Shown: positions 1 through 9,840 of the stretch, piece after piece | Layout of the letters: every line of letters begins with the position of its first letter | Position numbering within the stretch: the stretch's first letter is position 1 | NCBI GenBank assembly: GCA_964512905.1 | Contig: CAZEKK010000004.1 | Location: 1 to 29,162, forward strand | Reading direction: 5' to 3' | DNA: 29,162 nt | Origin: an uncultured Solirubrobacteraceae bacterium | Lineage (GTDB): Bacteria; Actinomycetota; Thermoleophilia; Solirubrobacterales; Solirubrobacteraceae | Notes under the pieces: generated by a model | Told to the model about the DNA's origin: nothing | The model's database searches: none | Seen by the model: the letters and a program-made list of their open reading frames with translations, nothing else | Made by a program: the position numbers and the translations under genes

Positions 1-540
1 GGCGTTGACGTTGTAGGAGTTGCCCTCGCGGTCGGCACCGACCGACGCGATCACCGGGATGTAGTCGCTGGCGATGTGCTGCAGCACGTCGACGTCGACC
101 CGTTCGATCCGGCCGACGAAGCCGATGTCGCGTCCGTCGGCGGCGGACTGGCGCGCGACCCGGAAGAGCAGGCCGTCGTCGCCGCACAGCCCGACCGCCG
201 GCTGCCCGTGGCGGTTGATCCGCAGCACGATGTCCTTGTTCACCTTGCCCACGAGCACCATCTTCGCCACTTCGACGGTTGCGGCGTCGCTGACCCGCAG
301 GCCGTCGACGAACTCCACCGGCAGGTTCAGCCGCTCCATGTACTGCGTGATCTCCGGCCCGCCGCCGTGGATGATCACCGGGTTCAGCCCGACGTACTTC
401 AGGAGCACCACGTCGCGTGCAAACTGGTCGCGCAGCGCCTCGTCGTTCATCGCCGCCCCGCCGTACTTGATCACCACGGTCTTGCCGTGGAACTCGCGGA
501 TGTACGGAAGCGCCTCCAGGAGAGTGCCGACGTCGCGCAT
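1..540 (-). CDS. argB: Acetylglutamate kinase (partial; runs off the window start)
   Basis: My translation from ATG 540-538 gives MRDVGTLLEALPYIREFHGKTVVIKYGGAAM...VVLVHGGGP...YIPVIASVGADREGNSYNVNA, with the NAGK motifs KYGG and HGGG. It lies directly after argJ. GGAG SD about 9 nt upstream. Confidence 0.96.
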   Translation of the reverse strand, partial: MRDVGTLLEALPYIREFHGKTVVIKYGGAAMNDEALRDQFARDVVLLKYVGLNPVIIHGGGPEITQYMERLNLPVEFVDGLRVSDAATVEVAKMVLVGKVNKDIVLRINRHGQPAVGLCGDDGLLFRVARQSAADGRDIGFVGRIERVDVDVLQHIASDYIPVIASVGADREGNSYNVNA

Positions 541-557
541 CAGTCCGAGCTCCGCAT
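540..557 (-). other. Putative 5-aa bridging mini-ORF (MRSSD*) between argJ and argB
   Basis: ATG 557-555 overlaps the argJ TGA, and its TGA 542-540 overlaps the argB ATG (TGATG at both ends). Translation not demonstrated. Confidence 0.35.
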
Positions 558-1804
558 CAGGTCGTGTACTCCGCGTTGATGGTCACGTACTCGTGCGAGA
601 GGTCGGAGAAGAAGACCTCGGTCTCGTGGCCGGCGCCGGGCAGGCCGACCTCGTAGAGGACCTCGTCGCCGGCCACCGCGGCGGCGAGGTCGGCCTCGGC
701 CGCGCCGACCGGCGAGCCGTCCGCCACCACCGCGATGCCCTCGATCGCGATGTCGAAGGCCAGCGGCGCGGTGCCGGGCATCGCCATCCCCACCGCCTGC
801 GCGATCCGGCCCCAGTTCGGGTCGCCGCCGTGCAGCGCCGCCTTGACCAGCGGCGAGTTGGCCACTGCCCGGGCGACCGGCTCGACCCGGTCGGTGCCGC
901 CGCGCACGACGACACGCCCGACGCGCCGCGACCCCTCGCCGTCCCTGACGATCAGCAGGGCAAGCTGGCGCAGCAGCGCATCCAGCGCCTCGCCGAAGGC
1001 CAGTTCGTCGTCTGACTCCGGCTCCACGCGGACCCCGCTCGCGCCGCTGGCGAGCAGGACCGCGGTGTCGTTGGTCGAGAGCTGGCCGTCGACGCTGATC
1101 CGGTCGAAGCTGCGCCGCACGCATACGCCGAAGAGCAGGTCGGCCGTCTCCGGGGCCAGGGCCGCGTCGGTCTGCACGAAGCAGAGCATCGTGGCGAAGG
1201 CGGGCTGGATCATCCCGGCCCCCTTCGCCTGGGCCGCGAGCGTCACGCGCCCCGAGGGGAGGTCGACCGCGAGCGTGGCCCGCTTCTCGAAGGCGTCGGT
1301 CGTCATGATCGCCGCCGCAAAGGCGTCGGCCGCGGCGCCCCCGGCGGCGAGGTCGGCGCCGGCCGCGTCGATCCCCCGCTCGACCGCCTCGATCGGCAGC
1401 GGGACGCCGATGACGCCCGTCGAGGCCACCGCGACCTGCCCCGGCGCGAGGCCGAGGACGGCCGCGGCCCGCTCCTGCATCGCCGCGGCCGTGTCGTAGC
1501 CCTGCGTGCCGACCGAGGCGTTGGCGTTGCCGCTGTTGACCACGACGCCCCGCAACGCGCCGAGGTCGCAGCGCTCGCGGCAGACGAGCACCGGCCCGGC
1601 CTGGACGCCCGAGCGGGTGAAGCGCGCCGCGCTCACGGTCGCCTCGCCGTCGCTGACGAGCAGGCCGAGATCGGTCTTGCCGCTCGCCTTCAGGCCGGCG
1701 GCGATGCCGGCCGCCCGGAAGCCCGCCGGCAGCCCGGCGTCGACGGCGCGCACGTGGGCCGGCGCAGCCACCCAGCGCGAGGAGAAGAACCCGTCCTGGC
1801 TCAC
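557..1804 (-). CDS. argJ: Bifunctional glutamate N-acetyltransferase/ornithine acetyltransferase
   Basis: Motifs GFRAAGIAAGLK, VVVNSGNANA, STGVIG, IMTTD, KGAGMIQP-FATML, STNDT, DGEG and NWGRI, ending in INAEYTT. GTG start overlaps the argC stop (GTGA). Confidence 0.97.
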   Translation of the reverse strand: MSQDGFFSSRWVAAPAHVRAVDAGLPAGFRAAGIAAGLKASGKTDLGLLVSDGEATVSAARFTRSGVQAGPVLVCRERCDLGALRGVVVNSGNANASVGTQGYDTAAAMQERAAAVLGLAPGQVAVASTGVIGVPLPIEAVERGIDAAGADLAAGGAAADAFAAAIMTTDAFEKRATLAVDLPSGRVTLAAQAKGAGMIQPAFATMLCFVQTDAALAPETADLLFGVCVRRSFDRISVDGQLSTNDTAVLLASGASGVRVEPESDDELAFGEALDALLRQLALLIVRDGEGSRRVGRVVVRGGTDRVEPVARAVANSPLVKAALHGGDPNWGRIAQAVGMAMPGTAPLAFDIAIEGIAVVADGSPVGAAEADLAAAVAGDEVLYEVGLPGAGHETEVFFSDLSHEYVTINAEYTT

Positions 1805-2790: not shown

Positions 2791-5206
2791 GCAGCTCGCC
2801 TCCCAGCTCGCGGGCCAGGGCGGCCTCGATGGCGGCACGGCGGTCGGCAACCTCGGCGTCGGTGAGCGTCCGGTCGGCGGCCCGGAACGCCAGCCGCAGG
2901 GCCAGCGACACCTGCCCTGCGCCGACCTGCTCGCCGCGGTAGACGTCGAAGACGTCGGCGCGGACGAGGTCGTCGCCCGCCGCCGCGCGCACGACGGCGG
3001 CAACCCGCTCTGCCGGGACGTCGTCGGCGACGACGACGGCGAGGTCGATCCGGGCCTCGGGGAAGCTCGTGAGGTCGCGGTAGCCGGCCCGTCCGGCGCC
3101 GGCCGCGGCCTCGAGCGCCCGGAGATCCACCTCGAAGCCCGCCGCCGCCTCGATCTCCCAGGTGCGCGCGACGAGCGGGTGAACCTCCCCGAGCCAGCCG
3201 ACCGGCTCGTCCCCGACCACCACCGCCGCGCTGCGACCGGGGTGCAGGAACGGCTCGGTGGCGGCCGCGACGCGCCACGGGACCGCCAGCGCGTCCATGA
3301 CGGCGGCCAGGACGCCCTTGGCGGCGAAGAGGTCCGCGGGCGGCGGCGCCGGGTCGCGCCACGTCGGCGGCGCGGCCGGGCCGCAGAGCAGGGCCCCGAG
3401 GTGCCAGCGCTCGTCGGGCAGCACGCCCGACGCGATGCCCGCCGCCGGCGCCAGGTAGACGCCCCCGGCCTCCCAGATCCGCACGCCATCGGCTCCGCGT
3501 GCGAGGTTGCGCGCCGCGATGTCGAGCAGCGAGCCGAGGAGCGTGGTCCGCAGCGTGGACTGGTCCTCGGCCATCGGATTGGTGAGCGGCACGACGCGGC
3601 GCCGCGGGTCGTCGGCCTCCAGCCGCAGGCGGTCGGGGAGGTCGGGCGCCGCGAAGCTCCAGCCGGCGGCCTCGAGCAGCCCGGCCCCGACGAGGGCGTC
3701 CTGGGCGCGCCGGACGGCGCGCTGGCCCGCCGAGAGGGCGCCCGCGCCCTCGGCGCGGTGCGGCAGCGTGGCGGGGATCGCCCCGAGGGTGCCGACGCGC
3801 GCGACCTCCTCGATGAGGTCCGCCTCGCGATCGACGTCGGCGCGGCGGTAGTGCGGCACGATGACGTCCAGGCCGTCGTCCGCGTCCGAGGCGTCGAAAC
3901 CGAGGGCGGTGAGCGCGGCGCGGGCCTGCTCGCGCGGGATCTCGAGCCCGAGCACGGCGGCGGTCCGGGCGTCGCGCAGCCGGATCGGCGCGGACGCGGG
4001 CCCGGGGCCGCCCACGTCGACCGTGCCGTCGGCCAGGCGGGCGCCGCAGAGGTCGATCATCAGGCGCGCCGCGACCGCCTGGGCCTCCATCGTCTGCTGC
4101 ACCGACAGCCCCTTGTCGAAGCGGGCGGACGCCTCGCTGCGCAGCGCGAGCTTCCACGACGTTCGCTGGATGTTCGGGCCGTTCCAGGCGGCGGCCTCCA
4201 TGAGGACCCGCGTCGTGCCCGGCTCGACCTCCGAGCGCGCGCCGCCCATGACGCCGGCGATCGAGGTCGGGCCGTCGTCGTCGCAGATCACGAGCATCTC
4301 CGCGTCCATCGCGCGCACCGATCCGTCGAGCGTCTCGACCTCCTCGCCGTCGCGGGCCCGGCGCACCACGAGGCGGCCGCCCGCCACCCGGTCCAGGTCG
4401 AAGGCGTGCAGCGGCTGGCCGGTGAGGAGCATCACGTAGTTCGTGATGTCGACGACGTTCGAGATCGGGCGCTGGCCGGCGGCCATCAGGCGCGCCGCCA
4501 GCCAGGCCGGCGAGGGGCCGATGGTCACGTCCTCGAAGACCCGCGCCGTGAACCGCGGGCAGAGGTCGGGATCCTGCACCGCGATGGCGATGCCGTCGAC
4601 CGGGCCGGGGGTGCCGGGATCGTCGGCCCACGGCGCCGGCCCCAACGGCGCCCCGGTGATCGCGTGGACCTCGCGCGCCAGGCCGTAGACGCTCAGGCAG
4701 TCCGGACGGTTCGGCGTGATCTCCAGTTCGATGACGTCGGTGGCGATCGGCAGGACCCCCGCGAGCGGGGTGCCGGGCTCCGGGCCGTCCGGGAGGACCA
4801 TGATCCCGCCGTGGTCGGTCCCGATGCCGAGTTCGTCTTCGGCGAGCACCATGCCGTGGGACTCGACGCCGCGCAGACGGGCTGTGCGCAGGGCGGTCCC
4901 ATCGGGCATGACCGCGCCGGGCAGCGCCACCGCCACGGTCTGCCCGGCGGCGACGTTGGGCGCGCCGCAGACGATCTGGTTCTCCACGCCCGGCCCGACC
5001 GCGACCCGGCAGACGCGCAGGCGGTCGGCGTCGGGATGGGGGTCGGCGGCGAGCACGCGCCCGACGACGAACCGCTCGGGAGCGCCGACCCCGTGGCGGG
5101 TGACGCGGCCGACCTCGGTGCCGGTGAGGTCGAAGCGCTCGGCGAGCGCCGCGGCGCTCAGGCCGGGGTCGACGTGGTCGTGGAGCCACAGCAGCGGCAG
5201 CCTCAT
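2783..5206 (-). CDS. pheT: Phenylalanine--tRNA ligase beta subunit
   Basis: 807 aa with HPDADRL, IVCGAPN, ITPNRPDCLS, RPISNVVDITNY, GQPLHAFD, RSEASARF, DLIEEVAR, NPM, GEVHP and a C-terminal FDX-ACB domain (FDVYRG...SLALRL). Confidence 0.98.
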   Translation of the reverse strand: MRLPLLWLHDHVDPGLSAAALAERFDLTGTEVGRVTRHGVGAPERFVVGRVLAADPHPDADRLRVCRVAVGPGVENQIVCGAPNVAAGQTVAVALPGAVMPDGTALRTARLRGVESHGMVLAEDELGIGTDHGGIMVLPDGPEPGTPLAGVLPIATDVIELEITPNRPDCLSVYGLAREVHAITGAPLGPAPWADDPGTPGPVDGIAIAVQDPDLCPRFTARVFEDVTIGPSPAWLAARLMAAGQRPISNVVDITNYVMLLTGQPLHAFDLDRVAGGRLVVRRARDGEEVETLDGSVRAMDAEMLVICDDDGPTSIAGVMGGARSEVEPGTTRVLMEAAAWNGPNIQRTSWKLALRSEASARFDKGLSVQQTMEAQAVAARLMIDLCGARLADGTVDVGGPGPASAPIRLRDARTAAVLGLEIPREQARAALTALGFDASDADDGLDVIVPHYRRADVDREADLIEEVARVGTLGAIPATLPHRAEGAGALSAGQRAVRRAQDALVGAGLLEAAGWSFAAPDLPDRLRLEADDPRRRVVPLTNPMAEDQSTLRTTLLGSLLDIAARNLARGADGVRIWEAGGVYLAPAAGIASGVLPDERWHLGALLCGPAAPPTWRDPAPPPADLFAAKGVLAAVMDALAVPWRVAAATEPFLHPGRSAAVVVGDEPVGWLGEVHPLVARTWEIEAAAGFEVDLRALEAAAGAGRAGYRDLTSFPEARIDLAVVVADDVPAERVAAVVRAAAGDDLVRADVFDVYRGEQVGAGQVSLALRLAFRAADRTLTDAEVADRRAAIEAALARELGGELRA

Positions 5207-5244
5207 GCGGCCGGCTCCAGCGTGCGTCCGATGGCGGCGCTCAT
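5203..5244 (-). other. Putative 13-aa bridging mini-ORF (MSAAIGRTLEPAA*) between pheS and pheT
   Basis: ATG 5244-5242 overlaps the pheS TGA (ATGA), and its TGA 5205-5203 overlaps the pheT ATG (ATGA). Translation not demonstrated. Confidence 0.4.
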
Positions 5245-7483: not shown

Positions 7484-7680
7484 GGCTTGCCCCCGAGCAT
7501 CTTCTTGATCCGCGGCGCGTCGTGCGGCGAGATCACGGCCGGCTTCGCGTGGCGGCGCTTGCGCTTGGGCGACTTCTTCTCGAGGATGTGGCTCGTGAAG
7601 GAGTGACGGCCCCGGATCTTGCCGGTCCCGGTGGCCTTGAAGCGCTTCTTGGCGCCGCTGTGCGACTTCATCTTCGGCAT
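7480..7680 (-). CDS. rpmI: 50S ribosomal protein L35
   Basis: [22 protein letters not shown]...[13 protein letters not shown]. Confidence 0.98.
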
Positions 7681-7692
7681 GGCGAGTCAGGC

Positions 7693-7698
7693 AGGGTA
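7693..7698 (-). promoter_or_regulatory. -10 element TACCCT for rpmI-rplT
   Basis: GC-TACCCT lies 12 nt before the rpmI ATG, downstream of the GNAT gene. Confidence 0.5.
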
Positions 7699-7751
7699 GC
7701 GAACGCGGCCGCGCGGGCGCACTGGCGGGCCGGCACGCCAGCACGCCGGCG

Positions 7752-8357
7752 TCAGCGGGCCGTGCGCCACATCGTGTCGACGGTCGGGCCGCCGGGGGGC
7801 GTGAACGCCCCGATCCGCTCGAAGCCGAGGGCCTCGTACCGCGGCACGTTGCCGGGGTTCGTCGACTCCAGGTAGCACGGCAGGCGCTCGGCGTCGATGC
7901 GAGCGAGGTTCTCGCGCAGGAGCGCGCCGCCGAGGCCACGGCCGGCGTGATCGCGGTGGGTGCCCCACCACTCCAGGTGCCAGTACTCCCCCGCCGGCAG
8001 ATTGGCGTCGAACTGCTCGAACAGCGCCTCGAGGGCCGCCGCCCGCGGGCCGAAGATCTCGCCCAGGGCGGCGGCGAAGCGTTCGGGCGGCACGCCGGCG
8101 CCGTAGGTCTGGCCCGGCGGCGTCCAGACGGTGACGGCCTCGCCGCCGGCGGTCATGTCGGTCCAGAGGTCGCCCTGGTCGAGTTCGGCCATGAGGCGCA
8201 TGAACGGCGCGATGTCCCGGGCGCGGGCCGTGGCGTCCGGAAACGCCCAGCGGCCCCAGAGCGGATCGTCGAAGAACGCGCTCGCGAGGCAGCCGGCGAC
8301 GGCCGGCAGGTCGGCGGCGGTGGCGGCGCGTCCGACTGCAGGCTGGTGACCGGGCAT
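7752..8357 (-). CDS. GNAT-family N-acetyltransferase (puromycin N-acetyltransferase-like)
   Basis: Acetyl-CoA motif [11 protein letters not shown], plus AFFDDPLW and C-terminal [19 protein letters not shown]. Start taken as ATG 8357 (MPGHQ...). Confidence 0.88.
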
Positions 8358-8474
8358 GTCCGTGGCCGACCGCCTACAACCTGATCCAGCTTTGGTGCGC
8401 ATGGCGCACGTGATCTGGATGAGGATTCAACCGGGCCCCTCCGGGCACCGCGACCGGCGGTCGCCGGAGCGACG

Positions 8475-9161
8475 TCAGGACGCCGGCTTGGCCTCGGGCT
8501 CGGGCGCGACCGGCGCCGCCTCGGCAGGCGCCGCCGGCGCGGCACCGGCAGACTCCTTCGCCTCCGCCGCCGCCTTCGCCGCGCCCCCCTCCTTCTCTGC
8601 CGCCTCGGCCTCGACGGCCTTGCCCGGCGCGATGAGCATCGTCATGTTGCGGCCGTCCTGGATCGGGCGCTGCTCGATGACCGCCAGTTCGCCGAGGTCC
8701 TCCGCCAGGCGGGTGAGGATCATCTCGCCGCGCTCGGGATGCGTGACCTCGCGTCCGCGGAACATGATCGTGACCTTGACTTTGTCGCGGTGGCGCAGGA
8801 AGCGCTCGACGTGGCCCTTCTTCGTCGAGTAGTCGTGCTCGGCGATCTTGGGGCGGAACTTGATCTCGCGCACCGTGATCTGCTGCTGGTGCTTGCGGGC
8901 GGCCTTGGCCTTCTGCTCCTGCTCGTACTTGTACTTGGAGTAGTCGAGCACGCGACACACGGGCGGACGGGCGTCCGGCGCCACCTCGACGAGGTCGAGA
9001 TCGCGCTCGCGGGCGTAGTCGAGCGCCTGGTCGGTCTTGATCACGCCGATCTGCTTGCCGTCGTCGCCGATCAGGCGCACTTCGGGCACGCGGATGCGCT
9101 CGTTAATCCGAGTCGTGTCCCGCTCAGGCGGGCGCCGGTCAAACCTGCGGGGGACCGGCAC
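8475..9161 (-). CDS. infC: Translation initiation factor IF-3
   Basis: [23 protein letters not shown]...[29 protein letters not shown] and [12 protein letters not shown], with an Ala/Glu/Pro C-terminal tail. GTG start with no SD; exact start uncertain. Confidence 0.97.
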
Positions 9162-9184
9162 TAGCTGAAGTCGGGGCGCGTCAA
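9161..9184 (-). other. Putative uORF2 (TTG start, MTRPDFS*) whose TAG overlaps the infC GTG
   Basis: TTG 9184-9182 to TAG 9163-9161 (TAGTG overlap with the infC start). Confidence 0.35.
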
Positions 9185-9216
9185 GCGGTGCGCGGCTGGC
9201 GGTGAGACTCGGTCAA
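9181..9216 (-). other. Putative near-leaderless uORF1 (TTG start, [11 protein letters not shown])
   Basis: TTG 9216-9214 lies 8 nt after TATACT. Its TGA 9183-9181 overlaps the uORF2 TTG (TTGA). Confidence 0.35.
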
Positions 9217-9224
9217 GGGCGCGG

Positions 9225-9230
9225 AGTATA
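9225..9230 (-). promoter_or_regulatory. -10 element TATACT of the infC promoter
   Basis: GC-TATACT, near consensus, 64 nt upstream of the infC GTG. Confidence 0.65.
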
Positions 9231-9302
9231 GCGGCGGACGGCGGCCGACGGGCGAAATCGCCTCCGGGCCGGTACGGATGTCCAGCCGGTGGCCGTCGCC
9301 GG

Positions 9303-9330
9303 TCAAGCGCCGACGGCTGCGCGCCGATCC
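9303..9330 (+). promoter_or_regulatory. Sigma28 (FliA/WhiG)-type promoter for the cupin gene
   Basis: TCAAG(9303-9307)-N15-GCCGATCC(9323-9330), with ATG at 9337. Confidence 0.55.
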
Positions 9331-9336
9331 GCCCGC

Positions 9337-9840
9337 ATGGCCGCGACCACCCACGATCTGCCGGCCCGGGAGGCACGCCGCACGTCCGGCGCCCGCCGAT
9401 CGCGGCGCCCGACCGGAGCACCGGCGCGCGGCCCGTCGATCGACGTGGCCGCGCTGGCCGACGCCCAGTGGAGGCCGGCGCCGATCGCCCCCGACTGGAT
9501 CCGTTCGGGGGATCCGGTGACCCGGTCCGCCCCCCTGTCGCGCAGCGCCGACGGTGCGGCGTCGACGTGGCTGTGGGACTGCACCGCCGGCAGCTTCCGG
9601 TGGGAGTTCGGTGCCTGCGACGAGACCGTCCTCATCCTCGAGGGCGAGGTCCGGGTGACCGGCCAGGACGGCGTCACCGTGGTGCTGCGCGAGGGCGACA
9701 CGGCGCTCTTCCCAGCGGGCACGACCGCCGTCTGGGAGGTCGATGCGTACGTCAAGAAGATCGCGTTCTGCCGTCGCCCCTTCCCCCATCGCCTCGTGGC
9801 CGCCGCCCGCGCCGGCAAGCGGCTCCTGCGCCGGATCTGA
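9337..9840 (+). CDS. Cupin domain protein (DUF861/cupin_3, EutQ-like)
   Basis: PIAPDWIRSGDP, STWLWDCTAGSFRWEFG-CDETVLILEGEVRVT and GDTALFPAG...WEV. Start chosen at ATG 9337, after the sigma28-like site. Confidence 0.85.
   Translation: MAATTHDLPAREARRTSGARRSRRPTGAPARGPSIDVAALADAQWRPAPIAPDWIRSGDPVTRSAPLSRSADGAASTWLWDCTAGSFRWEFGACDETVLILEGEVRVTGQDGVTVVLREGDTALFPAGTTAVWEVDAYVKKIAFCRRPFPHRLVAAARAGKRLLRRI

Follow-up and report, generated by a model that had tools for sequence, protein, structure and literature searches.

A chain of coupled mini-ORFs before infC in the Solirubrobacterales, a candidate device for IF3 feedback

The infC locus and its leader

The window (the whole stretch of DNA that was analysed, 29,162 nucleotides) belongs to a Solirubrobacteraceae genome, whose nearest named relatives are Solirubrobacteraceae, including Conexibacter. 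It contains infC, coding for the initiation factor IF3 (TIGR00168 match, E 2e-64), which is preceded by a leader of 55 nt with two mini-ORFs. The features considered are the following:

9225-9230, minus strand: -10 box TATACT, order-wide consensus GCTATACT, predicted start site at about 9217-9218
9181-9216, minus strand: uORF1, near-leaderless TTG start, 11 codons, its TGA overlapping the next TTG (-4)
9161-9184, minus strand: uORF2, TTG start, 7 codons, its TAG overlapping the infC GTG (-1)
8475-9161, minus strand: infC (IF3), GTG start, no Shine-Dalgarno (SD) word, conserved N-terminal extension forming a hairpin
9132-9161, minus strand: predicted 9-bp hairpin, arms 9161-9153 and 9140-9132, pairing the infC start codon
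9289-9840, plus strand: antisense cupin-like ORF inserted in the thrS-infC-rpmI cluster; likeness by eye, no NCBIfam hit
7752-8402, minus strand: acetyltransferase-like ORF inserted in the same cluster; likeness by eye, no NCBIfam hit
5203-5244, minus strand: ORF bridging pheS and pheT, 13 codons, ATGA at both ends
538-559, minus strand: ORF bridging argJ and an argB-like gene, 5 codons, TGATG at both ends

A sequence-only reading of this DNA had described a TATACT box, two successive TTG starts and an infC GTG without SD, joined by TTGA and TAGTG overlaps, and this layout is exact in the sequence. TATACT (9230-9225) is followed after 8 nt by the uORF1 TTG (9216), the uORF1 TGA (9183-9181) overlaps the uORF2 TTG (9184), and the uORF2 TAG (9163-9161) overlaps the infC GTG (9161). 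Both junctions have the geometry of termination-reinitiation, in which stop and start overlap (-4 or -1) or stand a few bases apart. Against a matrix derived from the 138 leaderless genes of this genome the box reaches 9.4 bits, and its spacer to the first start codon is 7-9 nt in 180/182 loci of the order, only five of which (5/182) carry an SD-like word before infC. Neither a sigma-70 -35/-10 pair nor an intrinsic terminator was found in the leader; a query for rho, prompted by the C/U-rich leader and by Rho-dependent polarity, gave no match above cut-off in this 69%-complete genome. Four metatranscriptome runs yielded low-depth contigs only, incapable of showing a transcript start: one spans the leader and infC (8968-9210, depth 3.8), another 9212-9362, upstream of the promoter.

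The GTG is the real infC start, as the N-terminal extension behind it is conserved while its codons vary synonymously, and relatives have GTG, ATG or TTG at the same exact position. No conserved in-frame alternative start was found upstream in 186 loci, 60 of which have an in-frame stop within 6 codons. The in-frame CTA preceding the GTG was rejected as a start, being a by-product of the TAG overlap that varies to ATA, GTA, TAA or TAG. The gene model had placed the infC start 27 codons too late. In the window, thrS ends about 600 nt upstream of infC, with the small antisense gene between them, and another gene separates infC from rpmI-rplT. Near rpmI (7680-7700, minus strand), 85/88 relatives lack an SD and a -10-like box lies mostly 9-12 nt upstream, a spacing exceeding that usual for leaderless genes; rpmI may have its own short-leader transcript.

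Genome-wide figures are approximate, since they come from a home-made gene model. About one quarter of the starts placed with confidence lie 6-11 nt behind a -10-like box, and the start codons of the 138 leaderless genes are ATG in 78, GTG in 58 and TTG in 2. The sequence behind 1301 non-coding -10-like boxes has sharp peaks of ATG and GTG but none of TTG, which stays flat. Direct leaderless ATG and GTG starts are common in the genome, yet only 1/186 loci has a directly leaderless infC. Relay coupling had also been suggested to recur in this operon: the bridging ORFs at pheS/pheT and argJ/argB are indeed present, but a genome-wide habit is unsupported, as mini-ORF bridges between genes number 8/110 against 4.5 expected (maximum 7), barely above chance.

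Conservation of the chain and of the hairpin

infC loci were collected from the family, order, class and phylum, and chains were followed from the first start codon after the -10 box; dinucleotide-shuffled leaders served as the null, and junctions of -4, -1, 0, +1 and +3 were counted as strict. One genome (G005, locus L021) is a single row in the counts over 121, 182 and 186 loci, and no claim depends on it; another (G218, L286) was excluded from the tallies and the tree. A chain leading to infC is present in 117/121 loci of the own family and the nearest named relatives, compared with a shuffled mean of 8.5 (maximum 15), a count that, like the other conservation counts, is not a P-value because related genomes are not independent. 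With strict junctions only, 85/121 loci retain it (shuffled 2.9, maximum 9). Without that restriction, the sister families f2-f4 have it in 44/50 loci (shuffled 3.4) and family f5 in 10/10 (shuffled 0.9). The chain is thus far beyond chance.

The sequence-only reading expected that the starts, frames and overlaps would be conserved in relatives while the peptides drift, and this was borne out. uORF1 starts with TTG in 114/122 loci of the own family and nearest named relatives. Among 101 TTG-led loci with a second TTGA, the uORF1 stop falls exactly inside the TTGA in 72, and in 26 others it precedes the TTGA by 5-9 nt; the distances between the two TTG codons in the overlapping type are 26, 29, 32, 35, 38, 41, 44, 47 and 50. 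uORF2 has 7, 8 or 9 codons in 95 of the same 101 loci, and its stop lies at -1 or 0 of infC in 98. Every Solirubrobacterales locus (186/186) has a stop codon in contact with the infC start, compared with 2/88 for rpmI and 52/586 for genes genome-wide; this last stop varies among TAG, TAA and TGA. The uORF1 peptides, mostly of 10-15 codons, share a mean identity of 14.5%, so that, as in the mycobacterial type of coupled small ORF, the stop/start overlap is conserved with a drifting peptide. A frame kept over many separate length changes and stop-codon swaps indicates selection on translation and not on a DNA word. Three loci of the own family (L009, L059, L063) have gained a third TTG uORF, placed after uORF2 and before infC and linked to both by perfect TTGA and TAGTG junctions.

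The GCTTGACGCG around the second junction (9175-9187, minus strand) is more conserved than coupling needs, GCT preceding the TGA in 81/102 loci and ACG following the second TTG in 78/102. A hairpin over the second TTG is unsupported in the own family (pairing 0.494 compared with 0.462 for shuffled uORF1, higher in 58/102), and thus a local hairpin fails to explain this conservation; GCTTGACGCG may represent a preferred context for re-initiation.

The claim of two TTG steps is true of the own family and does not extend to the sister families, which have three steps, ATG-GTG-TTG, or to f5, which has a single TTG uORF before infC. The f2-f4 leader is about 100-130 nt long: a leaderless uORF1, mostly starting with ATG, is followed by a GTG 5-10 nt past its stop, and the third step is often a TTG uORF ending in TAGTG. 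Codons 2-4 of this uORF1 pair with the GTG region, forming a helix of at least 6 bp in 45/49 loci (null 13.6, maximum 23) with a start codon inside an arm in 39/49, and compensatory variants occur, e.g., GGACAC/GTGTCC and GGGCAA/TTGCCC. A ribosome translating uORF1 would release the next start from the helix.

In 79 loci thrS lies near infC; 7 of these have the thrS end on the first TTGA, and 6 have it in the stop of uORF1 itself. In six loci (L043, L066, L077, L103, L104, L111) thrS crosses the infC -10 box and ends on the uORF1 stop, uORF1 being the tail of thrS, while in seven (L006, L014, L027, L074, L083, L084, L132) it crosses the box and ends on the first start overlap. Read-through thrS ribosomes can thus feed the same chain, and the relay may be derived from a thrS-infC coupling. 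That the first TTGA is a mere thrS stop was rejected, as this holds in only those 7/79 loci and not at the present one.

The first 30 nt of infC form the hairpin in which the GUG is paired, and codon usage follows it. Of 181 loci, 155 use CGG for Arg9 (background 18%), 156 have CCG as codon 2 (44% of Pro codons in the background) and 112 use the rare AGG for Arg6. Loci with Ile3 encode Asp8 as GAT in 29/36 cases, compared with 18/141 for those with Val3, a compensatory replacement of G-C by A-U. The predicted energy of the infC start region is -14.0 compared with -8.0 kcal/mol for synonymous recodings (lower in 161/186 loci), and the mean pairing of the start is 0.84. The hairpin shows only in this synonymous-codon test, the folding energy of the whole leader not being unusual (z -0.89), and family f5 is an exception that lacks it. 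Since an SD is missing and the start codon is paired, infC should depend on a ribosome terminating on top of its start; the hairpin, which the sequence-only reading had overlooked, would in the folding model make the relay obligatory.

Distribution of relays and of non-canonical infC starts

In E. coli and Streptomyces infC is autoregulated through an AUU or AUC start codon (PMC5472188, PMC5499595). Outside the class, an SD is combined with a non-canonical infC start in 25/25 outgroup genomes (ATC 12, ATA 5, GTA 3, GTC 2, ATT 2, GTT 1), and inside it f10 keeps SD and ATA (7/7) and f11 SD and GTC. The leader studied here concerns the same gene and probably has the same purpose, a negative feedback by which IF3 limits its own synthesis. 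It falls outside the AUU-type system: the infC start is the canonical GTG, ATG or TTG in 186/186 loci, SD-like words are as rare as noted above, compared with 25/25 in the outgroups, and the proposed sensor lies on upstream mini-ORFs.

Other versions were found in the class. In the order f7 an SD is followed by CTG in 27/29 loci, opening a uORF of 9-10 codons whose stop, made by the rare codon pair CCT-AGG, lies 11 nt inside infC in 26. The SD-led CTG stands 19-22 nt before the infC start (L205-L207, L209, L212, L215, L216, L223-L244), and several f7 loci also have an ATG uORF ending in the CTGA. The f7 leader is the cleanest candidate for an IF3 sensor. In f9 (L220, L251-L257) an SD precedes a five-codon TTG-GTG ORF that ends in TTGA on the infC TTG in 8/8 loci, and the single f12 genome has, by eye, a TTG uORF with the same kind of ending. 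f8 (L210, L221, L222, L245-L250) is an exception, with an ATG infC start and no relay seen. Its leader, located 45 nt before infC, is of a different kind: the ATG stands directly behind a terminator-like hairpin with a T run, and an SD-like AAAGGAG and a conserved helix lie upstream. The three f8 loci scanned gave no Rfam match.

Relays thus appear to occur in lineages without the SD and non-canonical infC start, while the lineages keeping both show no such need. The IF3 tree recovered the families and left their deep order unresolved; thus, no claim is made on one or several origins of the relay.

Proposed IF3 feedback and its alternatives

In the proposed mechanism, the promoter just upstream would produce an mRNA whose first codon is a weak UUG, 1-2 nt from the 5' end. 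A ribosome starting there would read 11 codons, stop on the UGA in UUGA, re-initiate without an SD at the second UUG, read 7 codons and stop on the UAG in UAGUG; terminating, it would open the hairpin over the infC GUG and re-initiate on infC. As free ribosomes would hardly start infC, which has no SD and a paired start codon, IF3 output would be set multiplicatively by one leaderless initiation followed by two re-initiations without an SD. Judging from sequence comparison, the start site, the actual translation of the mini-ORFs and the dependence of infC on the relay are, together, very probable.

Excess IF3 inhibits initiation in E. coli at non-canonical codons, on leaderless mRNA and in SD-less re-initiation (PMC2268962; PMC9031893). 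The relays use the second and third of these cases, and f7 uses the first and third; thus, passage along the chain would be throttled at high IF3 and eased at low IF3, and steps in series would sharpen the response. The sequence-only reading proposed a near-leaderless UUG entry with re-initiation hops as the sensor, given that IF3 disfavours non-canonical and leaderless starts. UUG itself is canonical for IF3 (PMC5499595; PMC5472188), and in SD-led tests added IF3 had hardly any effect on it (PMC5499595). As UUG is not rejected, any sensing has to lie in the leaderless entry and in re-initiation without an SD (PMC2268962). Taken with the identity of the gene and the complementary distribution, the three IF3-inhibited cases favour IF3 feedback over the other readings, and on balance it is slightly more probable than not that the relay replaced the non-canonical start codon as the feedback device, with the IF3 level as input.

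Several points count against IF3 feedback. The sister families enter by an ordinary leaderless ATG, as hundreds of other genes do; short leaders reduce leaderless initiation further; f5 lacks the hairpin, and f8 has an ATG start without a relay. One study found an effect of opposite sign, IF3 being required when re-initiation proceeds by 70S scanning (reviewed in PMC12548453; PMC9031893). A leaderless TTG start was ineffective in mycobacteria (PMC4633059), and thus few ribosomes may pass through uORF1, IF3 being an abundant factor.

The alternative that survives best, and which is held to be doubtful, is that the relay is translated and needed for the SD-less, structured infC start but is not regulated, its weak codons fixing a low IF3 level because an excess is harmful. 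All the comparative data fit such fixed delivery and damping equally well, and so does the IF3-canonical UUG; a peptide-independent delivery by uORFs has been proposed for mycobacteria (PMC4633059). However, promoter strength or one weak start could set a fixed low level as well, the order-wide multi-step chain and the SD-led CTG uORF of f7 exceed what damping needs, and the relay is located where the known feedback codon was lost.

It is improbable that the relay is regulatory with another input, such as L20/L35, ribosome recycling factor, ppGpp, initiator tRNA or amino-acid stalling in uORF1. As for stalling, the sister-family uORF1 is Thr/Arg-rich, its helix resembles an attenuator, and thrS lies upstream, ending on the first TTGA or the uORF1 stop in the 7 and 6 loci counted above; amino-acid attenuation is possible in those families. 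An amino-acid attenuator was rejected for the own family, where no residue run is conserved, identity is as low as given above, and uORF1 lacks Thr in 31/114 loci and His in 51/114. Recycling factor would be a plausible input in that re-initiation depends on it (PMC4633059). As for L20, the L20 leader of the Bacillus infC-rpmI-rplT operon (RF00558; PMC1865079) is a regulatory leader before infC, as is proposed here, but it is a protein-bound RNA with a terminator, and the present leader has no terminator. The Rfam search, RF00558 included, gave no match in the window, nor in ten sister-family loci at E<=5; there is no L20-leader match in the order, and the matches in f9 and f10 are weak (E 0.013 and 0.29 in two f9 loci, far below the gathering cut-off). 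Moreover, rpmI often has its own -10-like box and can lie 800-1200 nt away.

That the conserved TTGAC is a DNA or RNA motif, a -35 box or a binding site, with the reading frames as a by-product, is very improbable and largely refuted by the frame test: TTGAC does resemble a -35 box and GCTTGACGCG exceeds the conservation that coupling alone needs (ACG after the second TTG), but the spacings shift in threes, the first TTG is swapped for ATG with the next base free, the last stop and the infC start both vary, and no -10 box lies at 16-18 nt; such a promoter would also begin transcription inside infC.

The relay resembles known systems in part. The coupled leaderless small ORFs of mycobacteria (PMC4633059; review PMC12548453) share the short ORF, here predicted to be 5'-terminal, the stop/start overlap, an architecture conserved above the peptide and the proposed delivery of ribosomes. 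They differ in having ATG or GTG starts and, as described, single links; here the start is TTG (ATG in most f2-f4 loci), up to three links stand in series and helices hide the downstream starts. Termination-reinitiation at -4/-1 overlaps with coupling by RNA unfolding (PMC6728339; PMC12548453) resembles the TTGA/TAGTG geometry and the structured downstream start, but normally joins two real genes, while the upstream ORFs here have no conserved product. The sequence-only reading knew of no description of such a chain, and the literature search, whose coverage left out most subscription papers, found none of this leader. Each element is known, and what appears new is their combination into an order-wide substitute for the infC start codon.

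In eukaryotes, the uORFs of eIF5 and eIF1 inhibit under scanning. The mini-ORFs here would activate, by hand-off, in a bacterium; the likeness is that a start-fidelity factor is controlled by fidelity-dependent uORFs together with start context (PMC3326321). In its widest form, for which the arguments on either side are evenly poised, the proposal is that most Thermoleophilia would have swapped the near-universal non-canonical infC start for a multi-step IF3 sensor working by serial termination-reinitiation. This sensor would exist as a leaderless UUG-UUG, a leaderless AUG-GUG-UUG with occluding helices and an SD-led CUG version, and by analogy would be a bacterial, activating counterpart of eukaryotic uORF autoregulation.

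E. coli studies disagree on IF3 and re-initiation (30S vs 70S scanning), and the relay is a natural, selected substrate for the question of whether IF3 inhibits or promotes re-initiation in vivo; cultured members exist (Conexibacter), and a 55-nt leader suits reporter tests. ORFs of 7-11 codons with a UUG start, which gene callers never see, can be strongly selected purely for frame. Among bacterial feedback devices the non-canonical infC start is one of those conserved most widely, and it has been called universal; an order lacking this start and keeping a chain of coupled mini-ORFs is a clear exception.
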